15,331 bases of DNA. Source: a virus (lineage: Duplodnaviria > Heunggongvirae > Uroviricota > Caudoviricetes). The translations under genes and the position numbers were made by a program. The DNA is taken from IMG/VR virus record IMGVR_UViG_2718218172_000006; one strand, given 5' to 3'. Shown in pieces: positions 2,506 to 13,926 of this stretch (position 1 is the first letter of the stretch; each line of letters starts with the position of its first letter). Below the pieces are notes generated by a model. That model was given only the letters and a program-made list of their open reading frames with translations. It was not told the DNA's origin and made no database searches.

Positions 2506-2543
2506 GGGGAGCCCGCAGAACTCGGAAAAAATCGTACGCTAAG
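2506..2543. repeat. 38-bp terminal inverted repeat of a Tn21-family transposon (tnpA end)
   Basis: GGGGAGCCCGCAGAACTCGGAAAAAATCGTACGCTAAG at 2506-2543, close to the Tn501/Tn1721-type IR as I remember it. The tnpA stop codon (2539-2541) lies inside it, as is typical for this family. Confidence 0.8.
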
Positions 2544-5505
2544 GTTTTCCGAGCTGCCGCAGCGGCCTGAATTTCCCGTCTTCCAGCTTGCGGCTTTGCC
2601 GCCAAACGTAATCGCCGGTCAGGTTGATGTGCTCCCAGCCCAATGGCGAAAGGTATTGCAGTAACTCAGGATTAACTGGCTTGCCTGCCTCTTCTCGGGC
2701 CTGGGTCGCGCGCTCCAAGTACACGGTGTTCCACAACACGATGGCGGCCGTCACCAGGTTGAGGCCGCTGGCCCGGTAGCGCTGCTGCTCGAAACTCCGA
2801 TCCCTGATCTCGCCGAGGCGGTTGAAGAACACCGCCCTGGCCAGGGAGTTACGCGCCTCGCCCTTGTTCAATCCGGCATGCACGCGGCGACGCAGTTCCA
2901 CGCTTTGCAGCCAATCGAGGATGAACAGCGTGCGCTCGATCCGACCCAGCTCGCGCAGAGCCACGGCCAGGCCGTTCTGGCGCGGGTAGCTGCCAAGCTT
3001 GCGCAGCATCAGCGATGCGGTGACGGTGCCCTGCTTGATCGACGCGGCCAGCCGCAGAATCTCGTCCCAGTGAGCGCAGACGTGCTTGATGTTCAGGGTT
3101 CCGCCGAGCATTGGACGCAGCGTCGGGTAGTCTTGGACGCTATTGGGCACATACAACTTGGTTTCACCGAGGTCGCGGATGCGCGGCGCGAAGCGGAAGC
3201 CCAGCAGGTGCATCAGGGCGAAGACGTGATCGGTGAAGCCAGCGGTGTCGGTGTAGTGCTCCTCGATCCGCAGATCGGACTCGTGGTACAGCAGACCGTC
3301 GAGCACGTAGGTGGAATCACGCACGCCTACATTCACCACGCGGGTGCTGAACGGCGCGTACTGGTCAGAGATGTGGGTGTAGAACAGCCGTCCTGGCTCG
3401 CTACCGTACTTCGGGTTGACGTGGCCGGTGCTCTCGCCTTTACCGCCGGCACGGAAACGCTGGCCATCGGAGGATGAGGTGGTGCCGTCACCCCAGTTGG
3501 CGGCGAAGGCATGCCGGAACTGGCTGTTGACCAGCTCGGCCAGGGCCGTCGAGTAGGTTTCGTCACGGATGTGCCAGGCTTGCAACCAGGACAGCTTGGC
3601 GTAGGTCATGCCCGGACTCGACTCGGCCATTTTGGTCAGGCCGAGGTTGATGGCATCGCCCAGGATCGCCGTTAGCAGTAGCGTCCGGTCTTTCGCCTGT
3701 GCGCCATCCTTCAGGTGCGTGAAGTGGCGGGTGAAGCCCGTCCATTCATCCACATCCATCAGCAGCTCGGTGATCTTGATGCGCGGCAGTAGCTGGCTGG
3801 TCTGGTCGATCAGCGCCTGCGCGGTGTTGGGCACCGCGGAATCCAGCGGGGTGATTTTTAGCCCGGACTCGGTGAGGATGGCATCGGGTAGTTCGTTGTC
3901 CTTTGCCAGTCGGGTGACAGTGGCCAGCTGCTCGTCCAGCAGCTGCAAACGCTCTTCCAGGTACTGGTCGCTGTTCGGGTTGATCGCGAGTGGCAGCGCC
4001 TGTTCCCGCTTGAGTGCGGCGAATTTCTCGGGAGGCAGTAGGTAGTCATCGAAGTCGCGGAACTGCCGCGAGCCTTTGACCCAGATGTCGCCGGAGCGCA
4101 GCGCGTTCTTCAACTCGGACAAGGCGCAGATTTCGTAGAAGCGCCGGTCGATGCCTTCCGGGGTGATCACCAGCGGTTTCCAGCGCGGCTTGATGAAGGC
4201 GGTCGGTGCGTCGGAGGGCACCTTGCGCAGATTATCGGCATTCATCTCGCGTAGGGTCTGAACGGCATCCAGCACGGCTTGCGCTGCCGTCGCGGCTCGG
4301 AGCTGAAGCACCTCCAGAAAGGCTGGGGTGTAGCGGCGTAGCGTAGCGAAGTTCTCGCTGACCAGGTGCAGGTGGTCGAAGGCTTCCGGCCGGGCCAGCA
4401 GCTCGGCCTCAGTGACACTCTGGGTGAACTCGTCCCAGGGAATGACCGCCTCGATGGCGGCGAACGGATCGTCACCGGACTCTTTAGCGTCCAGCAGGGC
4501 CTGGCCGATCTTCGAGTACAGGCGCACCTTGTCATTGATCGCTTTGCCCTGCTTCTGGAACTGCTGCTGATGCTTGTGTTTCGCGCCACTGAACAGCTTG
4601 ACCAGGATGCGGTCGTGCAGATCAACCAGTTCATCGATCACGGTCGCGGTGCTTTCCAGTACCACGGCGACCAGCGTGGCATAGCGCCTCTCCGGTTCGA
4701 ACTTGCCGAGGTCTTGTGGCGTCATCTGCCCGCCCTCGCGGGCGAGCTTCAGCAATCGGTTCTGGTGGATGTGCCGGCCGAGGCTGTCGGGAAGGCCCAC
4801 CAGTTGGAAAATCTTCAGCCGCTCGATGTGCTCGATCATGTGCCGCGAGTTCGGCTTCAGCGGTGATTGCCGCAACCAGGTCAACCAAGTGCTGTTGCTG
4901 CCGGCCTTAATGGTGAGCAGTTCGTCGAGCTTGGCGTGATGCGATGGGTTCAACGGCTCGATCAGGGCGCGATAGACCCGCCGATTGGCGCGTGCAATGG
5001 CCTCCGAACACGCCCGGTCAATAACGCTCAGCGTCGGCAGGATGCGCCGCTTCTGGCGCAAGCTCTCCAGCGCCTGCCCGGCCAGCAGCAAGCCCTTGTC
5101 GGTCTGCTGGGCCAGCTCGGTCAACTCGCGCACCAGGGCGCGGAAGTCCGACAGACCGAACGGGGCCAGTTGCAGGTAGGTGCGCAGTTCCAGAGCGTGC
5201 TCGCGGCGGGTCACGTCGCGCTCACCGTACTTCGCCCAACTCGCGGGGTCGGCTTGGACTTGCTTGGCCACCCACTGGATCACGGGCTCGGGTAGCGCCG
5301 TGTCGTTGCCCAGCGCATAACCAGGGTAGCGCAGCAGGCAGAGCTGCACGGCGAAGCCGAGGCGGTTGCCATCGCCCCGCCGTTGACGGATCAGGGATAG
5401 GTCGGAGTCGTTGAAGGTGTAGTAGCGGATCAGGTCATCCTGGCTTTCTGGCAGCGCAAGCAGGGTGTCGCGCTCCGTAGCCGAGAGAATCGAGCGACGC
5501 GGCAT
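2539..5505 (-). CDS. tnpA: Tn3-superfamily (Tn21 subgroup) transposase TnpA, 988 aa
   Basis: 988-aa ORF starting [37 protein letters not shown]..., with conserved blocks I recall from Tn21/Tn501 TnpA (e.g. [41 protein letters not shown]). Length matches the family. Confidence 0.95.
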
Positions 5506-5508
5506 GGT

Positions 5509-6069
5509 TCAGTCGTCCGTGCGAAGGTACTGGTAGAGGGTTTCACGGCTGATGCCGAACTCGCGTGCGAGCTGAGCCTTCGGCTCGCCGGCAGCGGCCC
5601 GCTGCCGCAACGTGATGGCTTGATCGTCGGAGAGAGCTTTCTTGCGGCCCCGGTAAGCACCGCGCTGCTTGGCCAGGGCGATGCCCTCGCGCTGCCGCTC
5701 GCGGATCAGGGCGCGCTCGAACTCGGCAAAGGCCCCCATGACCGACAACATGAGGTTGGCCATGGGCGAGTCCTCGCCGGTGAACACCAACCCCTCCTTC
5801 AAGAACTCGATGCGCACGCCGCGCTTGGTCAGCCTTTGCACCAGACGGCGCAGATCGTCGAGGTTGCGCGCCAGGCGATCCATGCTGTGCACCACCACGG
5901 TATCGCCTTCGCGGACGAATCCGAGCATGGCTTCCAGCTGCGGGCGCTGGGTGTCCTTGCCCGAGGCCTTGTCGGTGAACAGCTTGCCGATCTCGACCTG
6001 CTCAAGTTGGCGTTCCGGGTTCTGGTCGTAACTGCTGACCCGAACGTAACCGATGCGTTGTCCCTGCAA
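5509..6069 (-). CDS. tnpR: serine recombinase (resolvase) TnpR
   Basis: The track gives 5509-6123 (204 aa), but the conserved resolvase N-terminus starts at QGQRIGYVRVSS. A TTG at 6067-6069 is preceded by GGAGG, giving a ~186-aa protein typical of Tn501/Tn1721 TnpR. The start is uncertain; the ATG at 6123 is the alternative. It sits 3 bp upstream of tnpA on the same strand. Confidence 0.88.
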   Translation of the reverse strand: MQGQRIGYVRVSSYDQNPERQLEQVEIGKLFTDKASGKDTQRPQLEAMLGFVREGDTVVVHSMDRLARNLDDLRRLVQRLTKRGVRIEFLKEGLVFTGEDSPMANLMLSVMGAFAEFERALIRERQREGIALAKQRGAYRGRKKALSDDQAITLRQRAAAGEPKAQLAREFGISRETLYQYLRTDD

Positions 6070-6260
6070 GATGCCTCCATAGGCTGGATGGGCGGTAGGG
6101 CTTACGTTGGTTTTTGGTTCCATTGCGCCCTAAGCCTTGAATTTGTCAGGTTGGAATCTATGACCTTGGCAAGCATGTGTCAAAGAATGTGAAAGCAGAC
6201 TCTATTCTGACGGCGCAGTGTCGTTTTCAGAAGACGGCTGCACTGAACGTCAGAAGCCGA
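6070..6260. promoter_or_regulatory. res (resolution) site region and tnpR promoter, approximate extent
   Basis: By position: in Tn21-family elements the three-subsite res region lies immediately upstream of tnpR. Sequence shows repeated TGTCA-containing dyads (TGTCAGGTTGG…, CATGTGTCAAAG…). Sub-site boundaries not determined. Confidence 0.45.
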
Positions 6261-6834: not shown

Positions 6835-7122
6835 TCAGAGAATGCGTTTGACCGCCTCGCTATATACTTCCGAGCGTTCTCTTTTCCCAACAGAAATCAC
6901 GAAAACGACAACTTTCTCGTCTATAACCTGGTATACAAGGCGATAGCCTGAAGACCGGAGCTTAATCTTGTAACAATCAGGCATACCACGGAGCTTGTTT
7001 GCTTCAATCCGGGGTGACTCAAGTACTTCAACCAGCTTCTTTTTCAACTGTTCACGTACCGTCGAGCCCAGCTTTCGCCATTCCTTTAGTGCCCGCTCGT
7101 CAAAATCCAGAAAATACGCCAT
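6835..7122 (-). CDS. relE: RelE mRNA-interferase toxin (type II TA)
   Basis: 95-aa ORF MAYFLDFDERALKEWRKLGSTVREQLKKKLVEVLESPRIEANKLRGMPDCYKIKLRSSGYRLVYQVIDEKVVVFVISVGKRERSEVYSEAVKRIL, recognised as E. coli RelE. Confidence 0.95.
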   Translation of the reverse strand: MAYFLDFDERALKEWRKLGSTVREQLKKKLVEVLESPRIEANKLRGMPDCYKIKLRSSGYRLVYQVIDEKVVVFVISVGKRERSEVYSEAVKRIL

Positions 7123-7361
7123 CAGAGTTCATCCAGCGTCACACGTACTGGCTTAGGATTACGAAGCCGTTCTTTCACTATCTCCACAAGTTCAGCATCT
7201 TCATCACTCAGGAGTGTCTGTTTGAACGGCAAGCGTTCATTGTCAGCGATATACTCGAGCATGAGACGAAGCGCTTCAGAAGGAGTTACACCCATTTTTT
7301 CAAGCGCGGCGTAAGAACGCGCTTTAAGTTCATCGTCAATACGCAGGTTAATGCTACCCAT
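7122..7361 (-). CDS. relB: RelB antitoxin
   Basis: 79-aa ORF MGSINLRIDDELKARSYAALEKMGVTPSEALRLMLEYIADNERLPFKQTLLSDEDAELVEIVKERLRNPKPVRVTLDEL, recognised as E. coli RelB. It overlaps the relE start by 1 bp. Confidence 0.95.
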   Translation of the reverse strand: MGSINLRIDDELKARSYAALEKMGVTPSEALRLMLEYIADNERLPFKQTLLSDEDAELVEIVKERLRNPKPVRVTLDEL

Positions 7362-7893: not shown

Positions 7894-8226
7894 ATGTCTG
7901 TCACAATTCAGGGAAATACCTCAACCGTTATTTCAAACAACTCCGCCCCGGAAGGAACATCAGAAATAGCCAAAATCACAAGACAAATTCAGGTGCTGAC
8001 TGAAAAGCTTGGGAAAATCTCATCGGAAGAGGGGATGACGACACAGCAGAAAAAAGAAATGGCTGCATTGGTACAGAAGCAAATTGAAAGCCTCTGGGCT
8101 CAACTGGAGCAGTTGTTAAGGCAGCAGGCAGAGAAAAAGAATGAAGACGCGACAGTTCAGCCTGATAAAAAAGAAGAGAAAAAAGACGATACAAATACCG
8201 CTGGCACCATTGATATTTACGTCTAA
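7894..8226 (+). CDS. flxA: FlxA (FliA-regulated protein), 110 aa
   Basis: 110-aa ORF MSVTIQGNTSTVISNNSAPEGTSEIAKITRQIQVLTEKLG…, recognised as E. coli FlxA, with a sigma-28 promoter just upstream. Confidence 0.85.
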   Translation: MSVTIQGNTSTVISNNSAPEGTSEIAKITRQIQVLTEKLGKISSEEGMTTQQKKEMAALVQKQIESLWAQLEQLLRQQAEKKNEDATVQPDKKEEKKDDTNTAGTIDIYV

Positions 8227-8313: not shown

Positions 8314-10162
8314 AGTTAACATTACAAGATATAAGTAATGGACGCACTCCCAATTAGTCTATTTAAATCGCCACGAGTTTAACTGACAACCCATGATCAA
8401 TTATGAATTGCAACTATTTCTGTAGTCACTTTTGTGGGGACAGTCCACAAAACTGCCAACTTCCGCTTCTTGCTCTTAGCGGACATTAGCATAGGCTATT
8501 TACCATAACGCCTCATTACGCGCACCGCCCAGACTGACTCAGCGCGTTTCTGGCATATCCCCGGTAAAACAAGTAACAAACCACCCGAAAATGAACACCA
8601 GAAACGCGACTTAAGAATCTACCCTATGAATGGATATGCACTCAACCGAATCGATCTTGGTTTCAATCTTTTTTATCGGGATCAGGCTTCTTTTTAGGTA
8701 ACTTCGGGGGCTTAACTTGCTGATGACTTTGCGTTCGGCGCGTAAGCCAGGGATGGTCAGCTTTAGGTTTAACATAGTATTTTGAGCGTAAATCAATACG
8801 GGCATTATCCACTCGTTCATGGACACTCTTTTCATCATCCAGTGGTATAGGCTCCGGGCCATCAACATACTTTTCCCAGCCCAGCGCTTTCCCGTCATAC
8901 AGAACGTTAATTTCACCGTCAAAGTTCTCGCATACAGTAACAACCGAATGCCTAAGTCGATATCCCCGGCCCTCACTGCGTACCTGAAACGCACTGCTTT
9001 TGTACTGGAAAGTGAGATTTTTAGACAGAACGCGCTTCGCCTGTAGGCTGAAGATATAACCCAGTTCCTCTTCAGAATGGTGCACATCAAGATGAGCATT
9101 ATCAGTAGTACGAGGCGACGTAGCGAACCGGTTGTTATAGGCTTCAATAAAGGTCGGCAACCATGCATTTGCTGTTTCAATATCACTGATATTCTGAAGC
9201 CGCATTTCTTTGACCAGCCTGTCCTGTAGTGTCTGATTGGCGCGCTCTACCCGCCCTTTTGCCTGCGGGCTGTTGGCATGGATTGGCTCGATGCCCAGTG
9301 TCTTTATCGCACGAGTGAACTGGGTCAGCTCACCTTCCCGCTCTGGGTTATTTACCCTGAATATACTGTGTCTATCAGAGTAGAGAGCGAGCGGTACGCC
9401 ATGATCATTAAGGTAACCCCGGAGGGTTTCCATGTAAGCCCGGGTTGTTTCAGCAGGCACAAAACGCAACGCCATCAACGCACTGGTGGCATCATCAATG
9501 AAAACGATCAGTGTACATCTGGGGCCTCGATTTTCAAACCAGTCATGAGGTGAGCCATCAATCTGGATCAGTTCACCGTAAGATGGTCGTCGCATGCGGC
9601 GTTGATATATACGGGCAATTTTACGACGGCGTTCACGCCATAACCCCTCTTCTATCATCCACTTTCTGAGAGTTTCAACGGATAAAGATAAACCGTGTAT
9701 CTCGCGCAATTTTTCGCACGCAAACGTAGGTCCAAAATCAGCGTAACGGCCTTTGAGGAGTGAAATTACTGTTGCTCTGAATTCAGTAGAAAAGGAATTA
9801 TTAGGACGCTTTCCACGTCGGTGGGAAACCAGACCAGAAGGCCCTTCATTTCTATACCGTTGCACCAGACGTTTAACCTGCCGAATAGAAATGCCAATGC
9901 GTGCCGCAGCTTGTTCCTGAATAATCTGAAGTCGGTGGAGTTCCTTATGACTCATCGTAACAGTCTCTTTGATCATGAAAAATCCCCCAGAGAATTGTCT
10001 GGGGACATTTTAGAATGGTTCAAAGGGGACATTACAGCTTGGTGTTAACAATAGCCTGCTTCTCCGTGCCTTTCGGCACGTAAGAGGCTAACCTACATGT
10101 GTCTAGCATGAAATTGGCCTCAGATTAATGTTAAGCGTCTTGCAGGACGCGTAATGTTAACT
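8314..10162 (-). mobile_element. insertion sequence carrying the DDE transposase; ends uncertain
   Basis: The only candidate terminal repeats I could find by eye are a perfect 12-bp inverted pair, AGTTAACATTAC at 8314-8325 and GTAATGTTAACT at 10151-10162. The true ends may lie inside this span. No target-site duplication identified. Confidence 0.3.
8663..9976 (-). CDS. DDE transposase, rve/integrase-core type (IS481- or ISNCY-like), 437 aa
   Basis: 437-aa ORF with an N-terminal helix-turn-helix region (IGISIRQVKRLVQRYRNEG) and a D…D…E arrangement typical of rve-fold transposases (LIQIDGSPHDW … LALYSDRHSIF … KGRVERANQTLQ). Lysine-rich C-terminal tail. Exact IS family not identified. Confidence 0.8.
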   Translation of the reverse strand: MIKETVTMSHKELHRLQIIQEQAAARIGISIRQVKRLVQRYRNEGPSGLVSHRRGKRPNNSFSTEFRATVISLLKGRYADFGPTFACEKLREIHGLSLSVETLRKWMIEEGLWRERRRKIARIYQRRMRRPSYGELIQIDGSPHDWFENRGPRCTLIVFIDDATSALMALRFVPAETTRAYMETLRGYLNDHGVPLALYSDRHSIFRVNNPEREGELTQFTRAIKTLGIEPIHANSPQAKGRVERANQTLQDRLVKEMRLQNISDIETANAWLPTFIEAYNNRFATSPRTTDNAHLDVHHSEEELGYIFSLQAKRVLSKNLTFQYKSSAFQVRSEGRGYRLRHSVVTVCENFDGEINVLYDGKALGWEKYVDGPEPIPLDDEKSVHERVDNARIDLRSKYYVKPKADHPWLTRRTQSHQQVKPPKLPKKKPDPDKKD

Positions 10163-10310
10163 GGGGCTTTTCTCTATCTGCCGTTGGTGTCCATGCCCGA
10201 GGCAGATAGCCTCAAGCACCCGCAGTCATTCTACTTAACTAAGATTTCCCCGCAAACCGTTTTTGTCCAGCACAGTAAATATCCAACTAAACCAATGGAG
10301 TTCGCTGTAT

Positions 10311-10490
10311 TTACCGCCAGTATTCAATGCACATGACCGCCATGAACACCCCTAAAAAAAGGGCATTTATATATCCAAATATTAATATCAAAACATCAAC
10401 TTTTTCCATATACCTTGCTGTGAAGATGATGGGCATACATGATGCGAACAACCAGAACGCAACAAACAAAAACTGCAATGCGTTTTTCAT
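10311..10490 (-). CDS. small two-helix membrane protein, 59 aa (track ORF 10311-10529 trimmed to the ATG with a ribosome-binding site)
   Basis: ATG at 10488-10490 is preceded by GTAGGAGGAATA-ATG, a near-consensus Shine-Dalgarno. Product MKNALQFLFVAFWLFASCMPIIFTARYMEKVDVLILIFGYINALFLGVFMAVMCIEYWR has two hydrophobic helices. No family recognised. Confidence 0.5.
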   Translation of the reverse strand: MKNALQFLFVAFWLFASCMPIIFTARYMEKVDVLILIFGYINALFLGVFMAVMCIEYWR

Positions 10491-10674
10491 TATTCCTCCT
10501 ACAATCAATGTGCAATTACATTTAAACACACCTCAATTTGGCCGGACATATAAATATCTAAACCAGAAAAAATCACTTACATAGCGTTACAAACTCTTTA
10601 GTCTAAAGGTTCATCGTAAAACATTCCCCATACTTATCAGTCCGTTCCGCGCCAGGTAGCTCATTGCCTTATCT

Positions 10675-10704
10675 GGCAACCTGTAATCAGGTTTCCGCTT
10701 TTTC
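10675..10704 (+). terminator. candidate intrinsic terminator (plus strand)
   Basis: GGCAACCTG-taat-CAGGTTTCC (9-bp stem, one mismatch) followed by GCTTTTT. No convincing plus-strand gene upstream, so the terminated transcript is unknown. Confidence 0.3.
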
Positions 10705-11642
10705 AGTTGGCTGGTCGTTTAACCGACATAGTTAATCCATTAATCTAGTTGCCGGATGTTGGTGGATTTTCGCGTTTTAGTTGTTCATAAAAGTGCACAG
10801 CTTTAACCAGTTCTTCTGATGTAACTGGGACTGGTGAGGCAGTGAATAAGGCCTGAATTTGATAGTTCGGCCTGTCGTTACAATCCTCTTTTTTCGGTAC
10901 ATATTTCCAGTCACCAGACCACTACTTCCCCTGAAAGTCCGTAACGCCTTTTTTCACGTAGCGATATCGCCATGCCACTGGTTTTGCTTGCCCCGCCGTT
11001 TCATGCCCTTCCTGATAATTAATCTCGCTCATTCATCGCCCCACTCATCACAATATGCTTCGACCGGAGTTTTTCCCGCTTCATAGTCATCACGCTAGGA
11101 TTCGACATCAGCAGCACTTCCACCGCGTAACTCACCATAGTCCATTAATAGTTCATCCCGCTCTTCAAAACTGATGTTATATTTAGCTGAACAAAAATCA
11201 GCCACTTTGTTCTTCCTCATCGTCTTTTATTTCGTGGTATGAGTAATTGCAGTAGTTAAAGAAAATTTCTTATGCTCCGTCATGAATTTCCTCAGGTGTT
11301 GCGTCATCGTCCACTTCGAATACATCCTCAAAATCTCCACCAGCTATTCCCGTTTCAATAATAATTTTGAACTTTCGCATTTCACTACCGCCCTTTCGGG
11401 CGGCCTCCTGATGTTCTGAGGGTGCAGAAATCCATCCGGTTAAGGATTAAATTTTATTTACAGAACTGAATTTAATTATTCAGATATACGTATCTGTAGC
11501 CTTACGAATCTACTCACTGGATGCCTCTTTCATAAAAATAATCCAGTGGGTTTTATCGTTTTTTCCCTGTTCGTTGACAGATAACAGGTTTTCTGTCTGT
11601 CAGTGCCAGAATCTGGCTTACCGGTATTTGCGTTTCATTCCA

Positions 11643-11999
11643 TTAAAAAATCAGAACGCCGTGCGGCCTCAACACCCGAAAGGCTTCTTTAAATCTCTGT
11701 CGCGAATCATCACGCCAGGCATCTTTATTCAGCCGTCCATATTTCTTTCCCATCCAGGCGTTATCACCAACACTCTCAAGATGCGGAGGGTCTAATACAA
11801 CCATCGAAAAAGATGCGTCTGCAAATGATAATGCACGAAAATCTGCGATAATGTCAGGGCTGATAATCAAGCGTCTCCCATTGCGTAATGTGTATCCTTC
11901 TTTTCTGATATCGCTGAATATCGCCCGTTCGTCAGACTTATCGAACCAGAACATGCGGCTGCCACAGCACATATCAAGAATGGTTGCCGGTGCACTCAC
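11643..11999 (-). CDS. DNA N6-adenine methyltransferase-like protein, short (118 aa), possibly truncated
   Basis: An N-terminal SAM-binding-like motif (LDMCCGSRMFWFDK) is followed by a DPPH motif (VVLDPPHLE), resembling the DPPY/DPPW catalytic motif of amino-methyltransferases. The GTG start overlaps the stop of the upstream gene by 4 bp. The frame stays open for 29 more codons beyond the TAA stop, suggesting a nonsense mutation or an unusually short enzyme. Confidence 0.5.
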   Translation of the reverse strand: MSAPATILDMCCGSRMFWFDKSDERAIFSDIRKEGYTLRNGRRLIISPDIIADFRALSFADASFSMVVLDPPHLESVGDNAWMGKKYGRLNKDAWRDDSRQRFKEAFRVLRPHGVLIF

Positions 12000-12418
12000 T
12001 GCGCCACGTCCTGAAAATTACCCTGATAGAAAGCCAGTATGCGCTGCATAACTTCGCTCTTCCGGCACTCGCGACAGATTATGTTTAGGCGACTGTCGTA
12101 GCGACGTATTTCTCCGTCAGGTGATGACCAGATAAGGTCCGGATCAACCACAGCAGGTTTCTTCACCTTTGCCCTCGAGAGTTTTTTGCGGGCGTTTTGC
12201 CAGTCCTTACGCGCCTGTTCAGAGGGGAATAACCCGTAGCCGGAGTTGTATACATCGCCACTGGCTACCAGCTCTCTGGCAAGAACGCTCATCAGATATC
12301 TAGTCGCACCTGTTTTAGCTTCCAGTTGCCGTAACGTCTCACGGCCGCTCTGGCGCACGAGTTCCACCACCTGCCATTTAATTTTTTCCCGCTCTTCTTG
12401 TGTAAAAACTTTTGCCAC
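11996..12418 (-). CDS. hypothetical prophage protein with a putative helix-turn-helix (140 aa)
   Basis: 140-aa track ORF with a GTG start. It has an HTH-like segment (ETLRQLEAKTGATRYLMSVLAREL) and a basic central region, and is translationally coupled to the downstream methyltransferase-like gene. Family not recognised. Confidence 0.55.
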   Translation of the reverse strand: MAKVFTQEEREKIKWQVVELVRQSGRETLRQLEAKTGATRYLMSVLARELVASGDVYNSGYGLFPSEQARKDWQNARKKLSRAKVKKPAVVDPDLIWSSPDGEIRRYDSRLNIICRECRKSEVMQRILAFYQGNFQDVAQ

Positions 12419-12458
12419 AAGTCCCCCTTAAAATTACCTCATGACCTGAAATCAACAC

Positions 12459-13424
12459 TTATCCTCTGAAACCAGGCGGAATTTCTGTATCCGGTTCAGA
12501 AATATGATTAACACAACGCTGTACAGGTGAACGTCCCAGGCGGATGACCAGTTCGTCCCATTTTTCGCGGAGCTTTGACGGGCTCATGATGTTTTTTACC
12601 CAGAATGGATCTCGCTGAACCCGACCAAACATTTCGCAAATTTGTCTGTGGCTTCTGCCATCCAGCATCCGCATTGTGCGCACGTCATTGGCCCAGGCAG
12701 TCCAGTTAGGCTCTTTTGGTCGCATGATCTCGCCATCATCACTGGCTGCCTGTTCGTAGAGACCCACGATCCGCCCCCAGATCCACTGCGCACACGCCAA
12801 ATCCTCCCTGCTACCCCACTGGCGTTTTTTCGCACTAAACACAACCGCGTCGGAGTTCCGGGTTAAAAAATCCTGTTCAGTCGTCTGCGGGTCCGGTTGC
12901 GAAGCTTCCGGACGAAAAGTGTTTTTATTCTCTGTAGTAATCTCTGTTGTATTCTCTGTAAGATCATCAGGCCATTTTGACCCGATGACATTGGGTCGTT
13001 TTGAACCAATGGAGCGTTTCATTTTGACCTCTTCCATCGTGTCATTTTGACCTGATGGAGCGGCGCATTTTGAACCGATGGATTCGCTCAATTTGCCACC
13101 ATCTAAAAGCTCGCTCCCATAGTTGATCGTGTAGAAATTGGTCATATCGCGCTTTGATTTATTGAGCTTTTCACAACGCAAAAGCCCCAGCGTTTTCAGA
13201 CTTGCAAACGCGCGCTTTAACGTTGACTCTGACCAGAATGGGAACTGTTCCAGCCATTGTTCCGTTGTGTTATAAATCCAGCGAACACCATCACATTCCA
13301 TGCCGGAGTTGGTATCTCTCAACCAGTAGTGCAGTTGTTGCAAAACAATGGCTTCGTTTAAGCCAATTTTCATTGCCAGCTGCGTGTTTATAACCAGTGG
13401 GCGTTCAGCAAAAAGAAGGCTCAT
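12459..13424 (-). CDS. lambda O-like replication initiator (replisome organiser) with an embedded candidate origin
   Basis: Track ORF 12459-13478 trimmed to the first ATG (13422-13424). It sits where a lambdoid O gene would, downstream of the Cro-like dicC. The N-terminal region looks like a DNA-binding domain, and the central linker is encoded by five direct DNA repeats followed by an A+T-rich stretch, as in ori-lambda. This is a functional inference; similarity not verified. Confidence 0.6.
   Translation of the reverse strand: MSLLFAERPLVINTQLAMKIGLNEAIVLQQLHYWLRDTNSGMECDGVRWIYNTTEQWLEQFPFWSESTLKRAFASLKTLGLLRCEKLNKSKRDMTNFYTINYGSELLDGGKLSESIGSKCAAPSGQNDTMEEVKMKRSIGSKRPNVIGSKWPDDLTENTTEITTENKNTFRPEASQPDPQTTEQDFLTRNSDAVVFSAKKRQWGSREDLACAQWIWGRIVGLYEQAASDDGEIMRPKEPNWTAWANDVRTMRMLDGRSHRQICEMFGRVQRDPFWVKNIMSPSKLREKWDELVIRLGRSPVQRCVNHISEPDTEIPPGFRG
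12973..13083. repeat. five iteron-like direct repeats (~23-bp period) inside the O-like gene
   Basis: Plus strand: cATTTTGACCCGATGaca (12973), cGTTTTGAACCAATGGAG (12997), tcATTTTGACCtcttcca (13019), tcATTTTGACCTGATGGAG (13042), gcATTTTGAACCGATGGAt (13065). The adjacent A+T-rich 12901-12960 contains ATTCTCTGTA twice. Confidence 0.6.
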
Positions 13425-13926
13425 AATTCCATCCAGCTTTTTGTTGGTATTGCTGTCGATACGCAAGTTTGAAAGCAATTGCTTTTTCTATAAGTTCGTC
13501 AGTTTCACGATCCACTACGGCAGGATCAGCAAAAAGCAGTCCGGACTCCACCACATCGCCATATTCTTTGTTTAACCCGGCGATCATGCACGTGATGCTT
13601 TTTCCGTCAGTAATTTCACGATACAACCTGAAATCATTAATCCGGATAGCCTCCATAATTGCAGGCACTAGCGCCGTGAACTTTTCACGCTTATCCCTGG
13701 TGTCGATAGCCTTCCAGCGTTCAAATATCTTCACTCGATTAACGCCAAGCGCTCGCTGATCAATCGCGCCACCTTCATATGTGACACGCTGAACATCGAT
13801 GTTCGGGCGCTCTTTCAAAGCCCAGAATGCTTCAGTGATTAATATCGTCGCCTGCTCCTGTGTCATTCCTGGTCGACATATCCAGGCATCCAGAGCCTCA
13901 CGAGCCTGTTCAGGAGTGATTTTCAT
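13405..13926 (-). CDS. hypothetical prophage early protein (173 aa)
   Basis: 173-aa ORF starting at ATG 13924-13926. It overlaps the dicC stop by 17 bp and the O-like gene start by ~20 bp. It sits where a lambdoid cII-like gene would; no family recognised. Confidence 0.5.
   Translation of the reverse strand: MKITPEQAREALDAWICRPGMTQEQATILITEAFWALKERPNIDVQRVTYEGGAIDQRALGVNRVKIFERWKAIDTRDKREKFTALVPAIMEAIRINDFRLYREITDGKSITCMIAGLNKEYGDVVESGLLFADPAVVDRETDELIEKAIAFKLAYRQQYQQKAGWNYEPSFC

Follow-up and report, generated by a model that had tools for sequence, protein, structure and literature searches.

The window analysed here, a 15,331-nt stretch of viral DNA (IMG/VR record IMGVR_UViG_2718218172_000006), contains on its minus strand a 118-aa open reading frame (ORF) that resembles a methyltransferase and overlaps the gene of a 140-aa protein with a helix-turn-helix (HTH). 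The locus raises a simple question: is the short ORF a decaying orphan phage methyltransferase, a small enzyme that still works, or the catalytic half of an enzyme whose DNA-binding function resides in the neighbouring protein? Positions 9980-13510 of the window match the genome of E. coli ATCC 8739 with 0 mismatches, and Escherichia phage PhiR42_1 (from E. coli ECOR13) is 99.9% identical over the region. The neighbouring genes form a CI/Cro/YdaT-like/O-like replication module, which identifies the region as the early part of a Rac-like lambdoid E. coli prophage.

The short ORF and its upstream neighbour

Both ORFs lie where the initial annotation had placed them. They have four bases in common, GTGA, which hold the TGA stop of the upstream gene, lygF, and the GTG start of the downstream ORF, a translational-coupling arrangement. 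The features are as follows.

11996-12418, minus strand: lygF, the 140-aa ORF, which looks intact (ORF list; Pfam DUF977)
11643-11999, minus strand: the 118-aa open remnant with a GTG start, corresponding to residues 1-118 of a ~160-aa enzyme (ORF list; phrog_954; PDLC03288)
11996-11999, minus strand: the GTGA overlap of the lygF stop and the methyltransferase start (sequence)
11955-11981, minus strand: motif I, ILDMCCGSR, the SAM-binding loop after β1 (sequence; model strand 7-9)
11781-11792, minus strand: motif IV, DPPH, directly after β4 (sequence; model strand 64-69)

The SAM-binding-like motif and the DPPH motif that had been noted in the 118-aa protein are thus both present. DPPH is the catalytic motif IV of amino-group methyltransferases, and its four residues (D70, P71, P72 and H73) are invariant among 46 family members; in motif I, C12 is invariant and L8, D9 and G13 almost so. 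The window protein carries motif I (LDxCCG), an acidic residue after β2 (D30) and DPPH, all at columns that are invariant or nearly so in these 46 members. It matched the phrog_954 profile ('DNA methyltransferase') at 6.7e-58 over profile positions 52-165 of 229, and two PADLOC models, PDLC03288 (MTase_II; 4.5e-45, positions 3-122 of 169) and PDLC03730 (oMTase; 2.8e-33). The 118-aa ORF makes up the N-terminal 73% of a class I SAM-dependent methyltransferase carried by phages.

The upstream gene directly follows the O-like replication gene. Its product, LygF, matched Pfam DUF977 (PF06163) at 5.1e-29, with residues 1-136 on profile positions 1-134 of 134, and, over its full length, phrog_142 at 1.6e-47, a family named 'Ren-like exclusion protein' in which 'Ren-like' is a PHROG label only. 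An AlphaFold2 (AF2) model was confident for residues 1-82 (pLDDT 90-96 over 11-70) and poorly predicted for the C-terminal half, with helices predicted at 7-24, 29-36, 40-53 and 67-82 and a β-hairpin wing ahead of the last. All Foldseek matches to this model were winged-helix proteins (GntR, MarR and IclR regulators), although these were weak (E 0.025-0.1), and DUF977 was previously called a winged helix by profile methods (Kinch et al. 2009, PMC2686095). These lines of evidence agree with the reading of the 140-aa protein as an HTH protein, and its N-terminal domain is predicted to be a winged helix (wHTH). Literature searches on LygF and DUF977 returned this winged-helix assignment (PMC2686095) and found no functional study.

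Two lesions in a longer reading frame

The initial annotation had counted 29 in-frame sense codons past the stop of the 118-aa ORF and had proposed that a single nonsense change shortened a protein of ~148 aa. The count is exact: beyond the TAA at 11643-11645, the frame runs through 29 sense codons (WNETQIPVSQILALTDRKPVICQRTGKKR) and closes with a TAA at 11553-11555. A DNA alignment of the window with the homologous loci of other E. coli genomes, combined with in-silico translation and repair, revealed two lesions in a gene that extended further still.

11510-11999, minus strand: the whole methyltransferase pseudogene (DNA alignment with intact homologues; in-silico repair)
11643-11645, minus strand: lesion 1, a premature TAA at codon 119, which is AAA (Lys119) in intact homologues (DNA alignment)
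11553-11642, minus strand: the 29 sense codons past the stop, namely former residues 120-144 and then out-of-frame GKKR (in-silico translation)
11565-11567, minus strand: lesion 2, GGG in place of the GG of intact homologues, a 1-nt frameshifting insertion (DNA alignment)
11510-11564, minus strand: the out-of-frame remainder that used to encode the C-terminus (..KNDKTHWIIFMKEASSE, then stop) (alignment; model)

At the first lesion, all intact homologues read TTTTTAAATGG and the window reads TTTTTTAATGG; in a longer context, CFSAN029787 and UTME-14 (161 aa) are intact, with ...CTGATTTTTAAATGGAAT..., as against ...CTGATTTTTTAATGGAAT... in the window. The altered codon is the AAA of Lys119, a residue that is invariant in 46 diverse members. 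The second lesion, an additional G located 78 nt downstream of the first, appears as ACA-GGAAAAAAC in all intact homologues versus ACAGGGAAAAAAC in the window. Because of this insertion, the 29-codon extension ends early, in GKKR and a stop, and the ancestor was ~157-162 aa rather than ~148 aa in length. The proposed nonsense change therefore stands (AAA to TAA), whereas the proposed length, although a correct reading of the frame as it now is, does not. The ancestral frame runs to a TAG at 11510-11512, through a segment (11510-11564) that formerly held β7 and the nearly invariant residues T150, W152 and K157. When both lesions were repaired in silico, the result was a 162-aa protein that is collinear with its intact relatives and ends in ...THWIIFMKEASSE (its C-terminus is also given as ...GKNDKTHWIIFMKEASSE).

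Homopolymer runs contain or adjoin both lesions (T6 and G3/A6), as would suit sequencing or assembly errors. The same two lesions were, however, present in the independent assemblies of PhiR42_1, ATCC 8739 and H15 and in four IMG/VR contigs, that is, in every copy of the allele lineage that was checked, and a 531-nt query spanning the remnant finds 382 complete E. coli records with an identity of 99% or more. This recurrence indicates that the lesions are inherited, and we give errors a vanishingly small probability. There is likewise almost no chance that programmed recoding, by readthrough and ribosomal frameshifting, restores the full-length enzyme. The stop does fall in a T/A-rich run and the second lesion beside an A6 run, but two separate events would be required: a TAA with T as the next base would have to be read through, and the ribosome would have to shift by +1. 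Moreover, the stop and the extra G are both absent from the aligned intact homologues, and at the stop the other frames run for only a few codons before they close.

A close relative of the window protein in ENA (P0006; 133 aa, 99% identical) has a Glu at the position of the stop (LIFEWNETQ) and still ends in GKKR. It retains the frameshift without the stop, which suggests, from this one sequence, that the frameshift may be the older of the two lesions.

The intact family and its upstream genes

Among 5.8 billion proteins searched, 6694 were homologues, and almost all of the best 120 of these were 156-178 aa long or ~248-251 aa long with an unrelated extension at the C-terminus. When representatives at 50% identity were searched exhaustively, 2008 clusters emerged, and the matched core reached within a few residues of the query C-terminus in nearly all full-length matches. 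Across 80 viral loci, 61 ORFs were of 150-180 aa (median 160), 13 were longer and 5 were of 118 aa; four of the five contigs with the 118-aa form carry both window lesions, and the fifth ends right after the stop codon. Intact E. coli members (P0001 and P0004) are 83-88% identical to the window protein, and the closest of them, P0001 (162 aa, 88% identity), is encoded directly after a DUF977 gene. Homologues are therefore not consistently ~118 aa, as would be expected of a normal short enzyme: they measure ~157-165 aa, with a subset near 250, and, when aligned, continue for ~40 residues past the position of the stop.

The longer subset (~248-290 aa; L016, L030, L041, L042, L046-L049 and L084; P0009, P0069 and P0095) has a conserved C-terminal extension of ~88 aa (...ELESLLL...HHQRRLKHHINRMWLEKM...) that may be a fusion with a downstream ORF and that bears no resemblance by eye to LygF or DUF977. 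N-terminal extensions of 50-80 aa were also considered as fused DNA-binding domains and were rejected: they vary from protein to protein and resemble artefacts of start-codon assignment or of fusion.

The AF2 model of intact P0004 (161 aa, pLDDT 94.2) is a compact Rossmann methyltransferase, with β1 at 7-9, β2 at 26-30, a hairpin at 34-46, β4 at 64-69 followed by DPPH, a helix at 95-109, β5 at 110-121, a helix at 127-131, β6 at 140-144 and β7 at 150-156. The whole model consists of the Rossmann core and this one β-hairpin, with no separate target-recognition domain, in line with the earlier remark that the short protein has no obvious target-recognition region. The two PADLOC models of the family, labelled 'Type II methyltransferase' (169 positions) and 'orphan methyltransferase' (153 positions), agree with a full length of ~160 aa, and phrog_954 matched the intact protein at 7e-88.

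Mapped onto this model, the stop at codon 119 lands inside β5 and deletes β6 and β7. A complete catalytic domain is absent from the window protein (β5-β7), given the stop at codon 119 and the frameshift after codon 144. Three residues of this part are invariant in 46 diverse members (K119, W120 and P138) and three are nearly invariant (T150, W152 and K157); all six are lost or out of frame in the window. As the rest of β5 and all of β6-β7 are missing, the seven-stranded Rossmann sheet would be unable to form, and the 118-aa product should have no methyltransferase activity.

We therefore consider it very improbable that the 118-aa protein still works, either as a genuinely short enzyme or as a SAM-binding protein. 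Its motifs I and IV are intact, NCBI's annotation pipeline PGAP records it as a coding sequence (CDS) in many genomes and the allele is widespread (382 E. coli records at 99% identity or more and a further 98 at 95-99%). Against this, the 118-aa form was found in a single allele lineage only, the stretch by which other members exceed it includes invariant positions, β5 is cut by the stop and the window lineage has replacements at conserved columns. In addition, the sequence after the stop is still recognisable as the lost C-terminus, which argues for recent truncation rather than a designed short form.

Those replacements (P58S, F69L, G102R and G141C) affect columns with a conservation of 87% or more, and none of the 46 aligned members has any of three of them. 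Unique codon changes in the window lineage comprised 14 non-synonymous and 12 synonymous changes, compared with 4:13, 3:7 and 3:2 in three intact lineages; this excess was not significant (Fisher p = 0.11 versus the pooled intact lineages and 0.06 versus L010) and is only suggestive of decay. Pairwise dN/dS was 0.12-0.24 between the window and intact copies and 0.11-0.27 among intact copies, a comparison that is uninformative because most of the divergence predates inactivation.

In a Pfam scan at E <= 1, only the generic Methyltransf_11 (3.5e-4) and Methyltransf_25 families matched. None of the DNA-methyltransferase families sought in that scan did so, neither the Dam-like (PF05869) and MT-A70 families that had been put forward as candidates nor N6_N4_Mtase or MethyltransfD12, and NCBIfam gave only generic sub-threshold matches and no DNA-methyltransferase family. 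Sequence searches of the PDB, whether started from one protein or from a profile of 46 sequences, gave a single marginal match, PH0226 (4.6e-5 with the profile), to which Foldseek added M.TaqI, CamA, M.BceJIV and an N4-cytosine methyltransferase (E about 2e-4 to 7e-4). The closest known systems with solved structures include the (D/N)PP(Y/F/H) amino-group methyltransferases Trm11 (tRNA m2G10), TrmN/Trm14, RsmC and TrmM, as well as M.TaqI, a gamma-class DNA N6-adenine methyltransferase. Motif I precedes the DPPH after β4 in this family, which is the gamma-type order of amino-group methyltransferases (compare PMC3299994), and DPPH is characteristic of enzymes that transfer methyl groups to the exocyclic amino groups of nucleic-acid bases. 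Judged from these motifs, the ancestral activity was most likely N-methylation of a nucleic-acid base. That base was probably in DNA, a label that comes from database annotation, and, because there is no recognition domain, intact members most likely have little intrinsic sequence specificity. RefSeq names the family 'class I SAM-dependent methyltransferase', and literature searches, which were not aimed directly at the family, found no experimental study of the ~160-aa proteins.

Prophage-borne methyltransferases of low specificity have been described elsewhere. Hia5, Hin1523 and Nme1821 are non-specific adenine DNA methyltransferases encoded by prophages, and Hia5, a Dam-like protein of 281 aa, has a region corresponding to a target-recognition domain (PMC3299994). 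M.EcoGII, encoded by a prophage that appears to be cryptic, is not expressed (PMC5778455). Like the family studied here, the Hia5-type enzymes and M.EcoGII are orphan prophage methyltransferases with a DPPx motif, but no homology between the two groups was detected in the Pfam scan; by analogy, Hia5 and M.EcoGII illustrate how a phage methyltransferase of low specificity might behave.

The second suggestion for the locus was that DNA binding and catalysis are split across two proteins; LygF would target DNA through its winged helix and the short methyltransferase would provide catalysis. The predicted winged-helix domain of LygF and the predicted lack of a separate target-recognition domain in the ~160-aa family would both suit such an enzyme, and the DUF977-methyltransferase pair with its 4-bp overlap recurs in several lineages (L005; L010 and L011; L014 and L015), some with intact enzymes. 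Of the 80 viral loci, however, only 7 have a DUF977 gene immediately upstream; in the remaining 73, this position is taken by unrelated ORFs of 41-465 aa. The 15 upstream ORFs that were read look mutually unrelated, some being Ead/Ea22-like coiled-coil or small zinc-finger-like proteins by eye, and in the PGAP annotation of some E. coli genomes the methyltransferase adjoins Eae and ead/Ea22-like proteins. The 4-bp overlap, for its part, was present in 37 of the 80 loci whatever the upstream gene, and also in O157 and UTME-14, where the upstream genes are unrelated, so that it is a property of the methyltransferase cassette and not of pairing with LygF. Conversely, lygF occurs without an adjoining methyltransferase in mEp460 and vB_EcoS-640R1, in which another gene comes next, and the catalytic partner in the window is broken in any case. 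A two-protein enzyme of LygF and the methyltransferase is thus highly unlikely; LygF is an independent neighbour and not a partner subunit.

A broader version of this idea, that the ~160-aa family is a bare catalytic module that borrows targeting from whichever protein is coupled upstream (LygF in this lineage), is a long shot. The absence of an extra domain, the coupled junctions in 37 of 80 loci and the existence of DUF977-linked intact copies are in its favour, and, if it were true, the window would keep the wreck of a two-protein methyltransferase. The upstream partners have no visible common fold or function, which argues instead for simple cassette mosaicism.

With these alternatives weighed, we regard it as very probable that the 118-aa ORF is a decaying orphan methyltransferase pseudogene, derived from an ancestral gene for ~162 aa and adjoined by LygF as an independent neighbour. 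Decay of an orphan phage methyltransferase was one of the two options first raised for this locus, and it is borne out by the change of AAA to TAA at the invariant Lys119 and by the frameshift relative to intact homologues. The window copy has the same motifs I and IV as the family defined by PHROG 954, PDLC03288 and PDLC03730, and the same early-region site in lambdoid prophages, but it lacks residues 119-162 owing to the stop and the frameshift; it is a pseudogene of the PHROG 954 family and not a working member.

Decay and annotation in E. coli prophages

Further features of the window are as follows.

12459-13478, minus strand: a 339-aa ORF (ORF list)
11198-11380, minus strand: a pseudogene with an internal stop, named DUF7167 in the H15 record (ATCC 8739 annotation)
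10611-11032, minus strand: a hypothetical gene, 'frameshifted; internal stop' (ATCC 8739 annotation)
8663-9976, minus strand: an IS-type transposase, a single ORF of 437 aa (HTH_32/HTH_29 and rve_3 integrase core)
7894-8226, plus strand: a FlxA-like gene (2.3e-14)
6835-7122, minus strand: a ParE-family toxin ORF (2.2e-13)
5509-6123, minus strand: a serine resolvase (Resolvase 1.9e-38 and HTH_7)
2539-5505, minus strand: a Tn3-family transposase of 988 aa (DDE_Tnp_Tn3 5.8e-155 and DUF4158)

In the annotation of the identical ATCC 8739 sequence, the next two features after the methyltransferase remnant are likewise pseudogenes, and decay affects the whole stretch after lygF. The transposase and resolvase form a Tn3-family transposon module that spans 2539-6123 on the minus strand, and the PhiR42_1 record splits the transposase at 8663-9976 into two pieces, 'Mobile element protein' and 'transposase'. 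Just upstream of the ParE-family toxin ORF, a small ORF (7122-7361) could encode an antitoxin. A scan for promoters and terminators found no relevant signal above background.

On this reading, a Rac-like lambdoid prophage once carried a stand-alone class I SAM-dependent methyltransferase of ~162 aa just downstream of lygF, with a start codon that overlapped the stop of the preceding gene. In this lineage, codon 119 then changed from AAA to TAA and a single nucleotide was inserted 78 nt beyond it, so that 118 codons, encoding β1-β4 and part of β5, have stayed open. As the coupled start is kept in the remnant, the truncated protein may still be made.

The 531-nt query spanning the remnant matched 902 E. 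coli records, corresponding to 901 of 5426 complete genomes, with 382 records at 99% identity or more, 98 at 95-99%, 30 at 90-95% and 392 at 80-90%. A copy in E. coli O157:H7 FRIK2069 (L006 1503-1976) has an independent TGG to TAG change at codon 95, described by PGAP as 'internal stop', which indicates that inactivation has occurred more than once in E. coli prophages.

Some public annotations already flag the gene as a pseudogene. PGAP treats the allele inconsistently: the identical 118-aa ORF is an ordinary CDS (WP_001310834.1) in ATCC 8739 and many other genomes, whereas the 98.7%-identical allele of H15 (RG53_RS07460) is a 'SAM-dependent methyltransferase; frameshifted; internal stop'. 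The PhiR42_1 record annotates the same allele as 'methyltransferase protein' (XSB42581.1). The DNA of these three entries is identical or 98.7-99.9% identical to the window and has the same two lesions.

In itself, the finding is a case of routine gene decay in the accessory region of a prophage and matters little. The identical sequence is nevertheless annotated as functional in many RefSeq genomes, and methylome or restriction-modification surveys that count it will overestimate the number of active methyltransferases. Its intact relatives constitute a large family, with 6694 homologues and about 2000 clusters at 50% identity. These DPPH methyltransferases are unusually small, at about 155-165 aa, and have no recognition domain, and it is this intact family, rather than the dead copy in the window, that makes a worthwhile experimental target.
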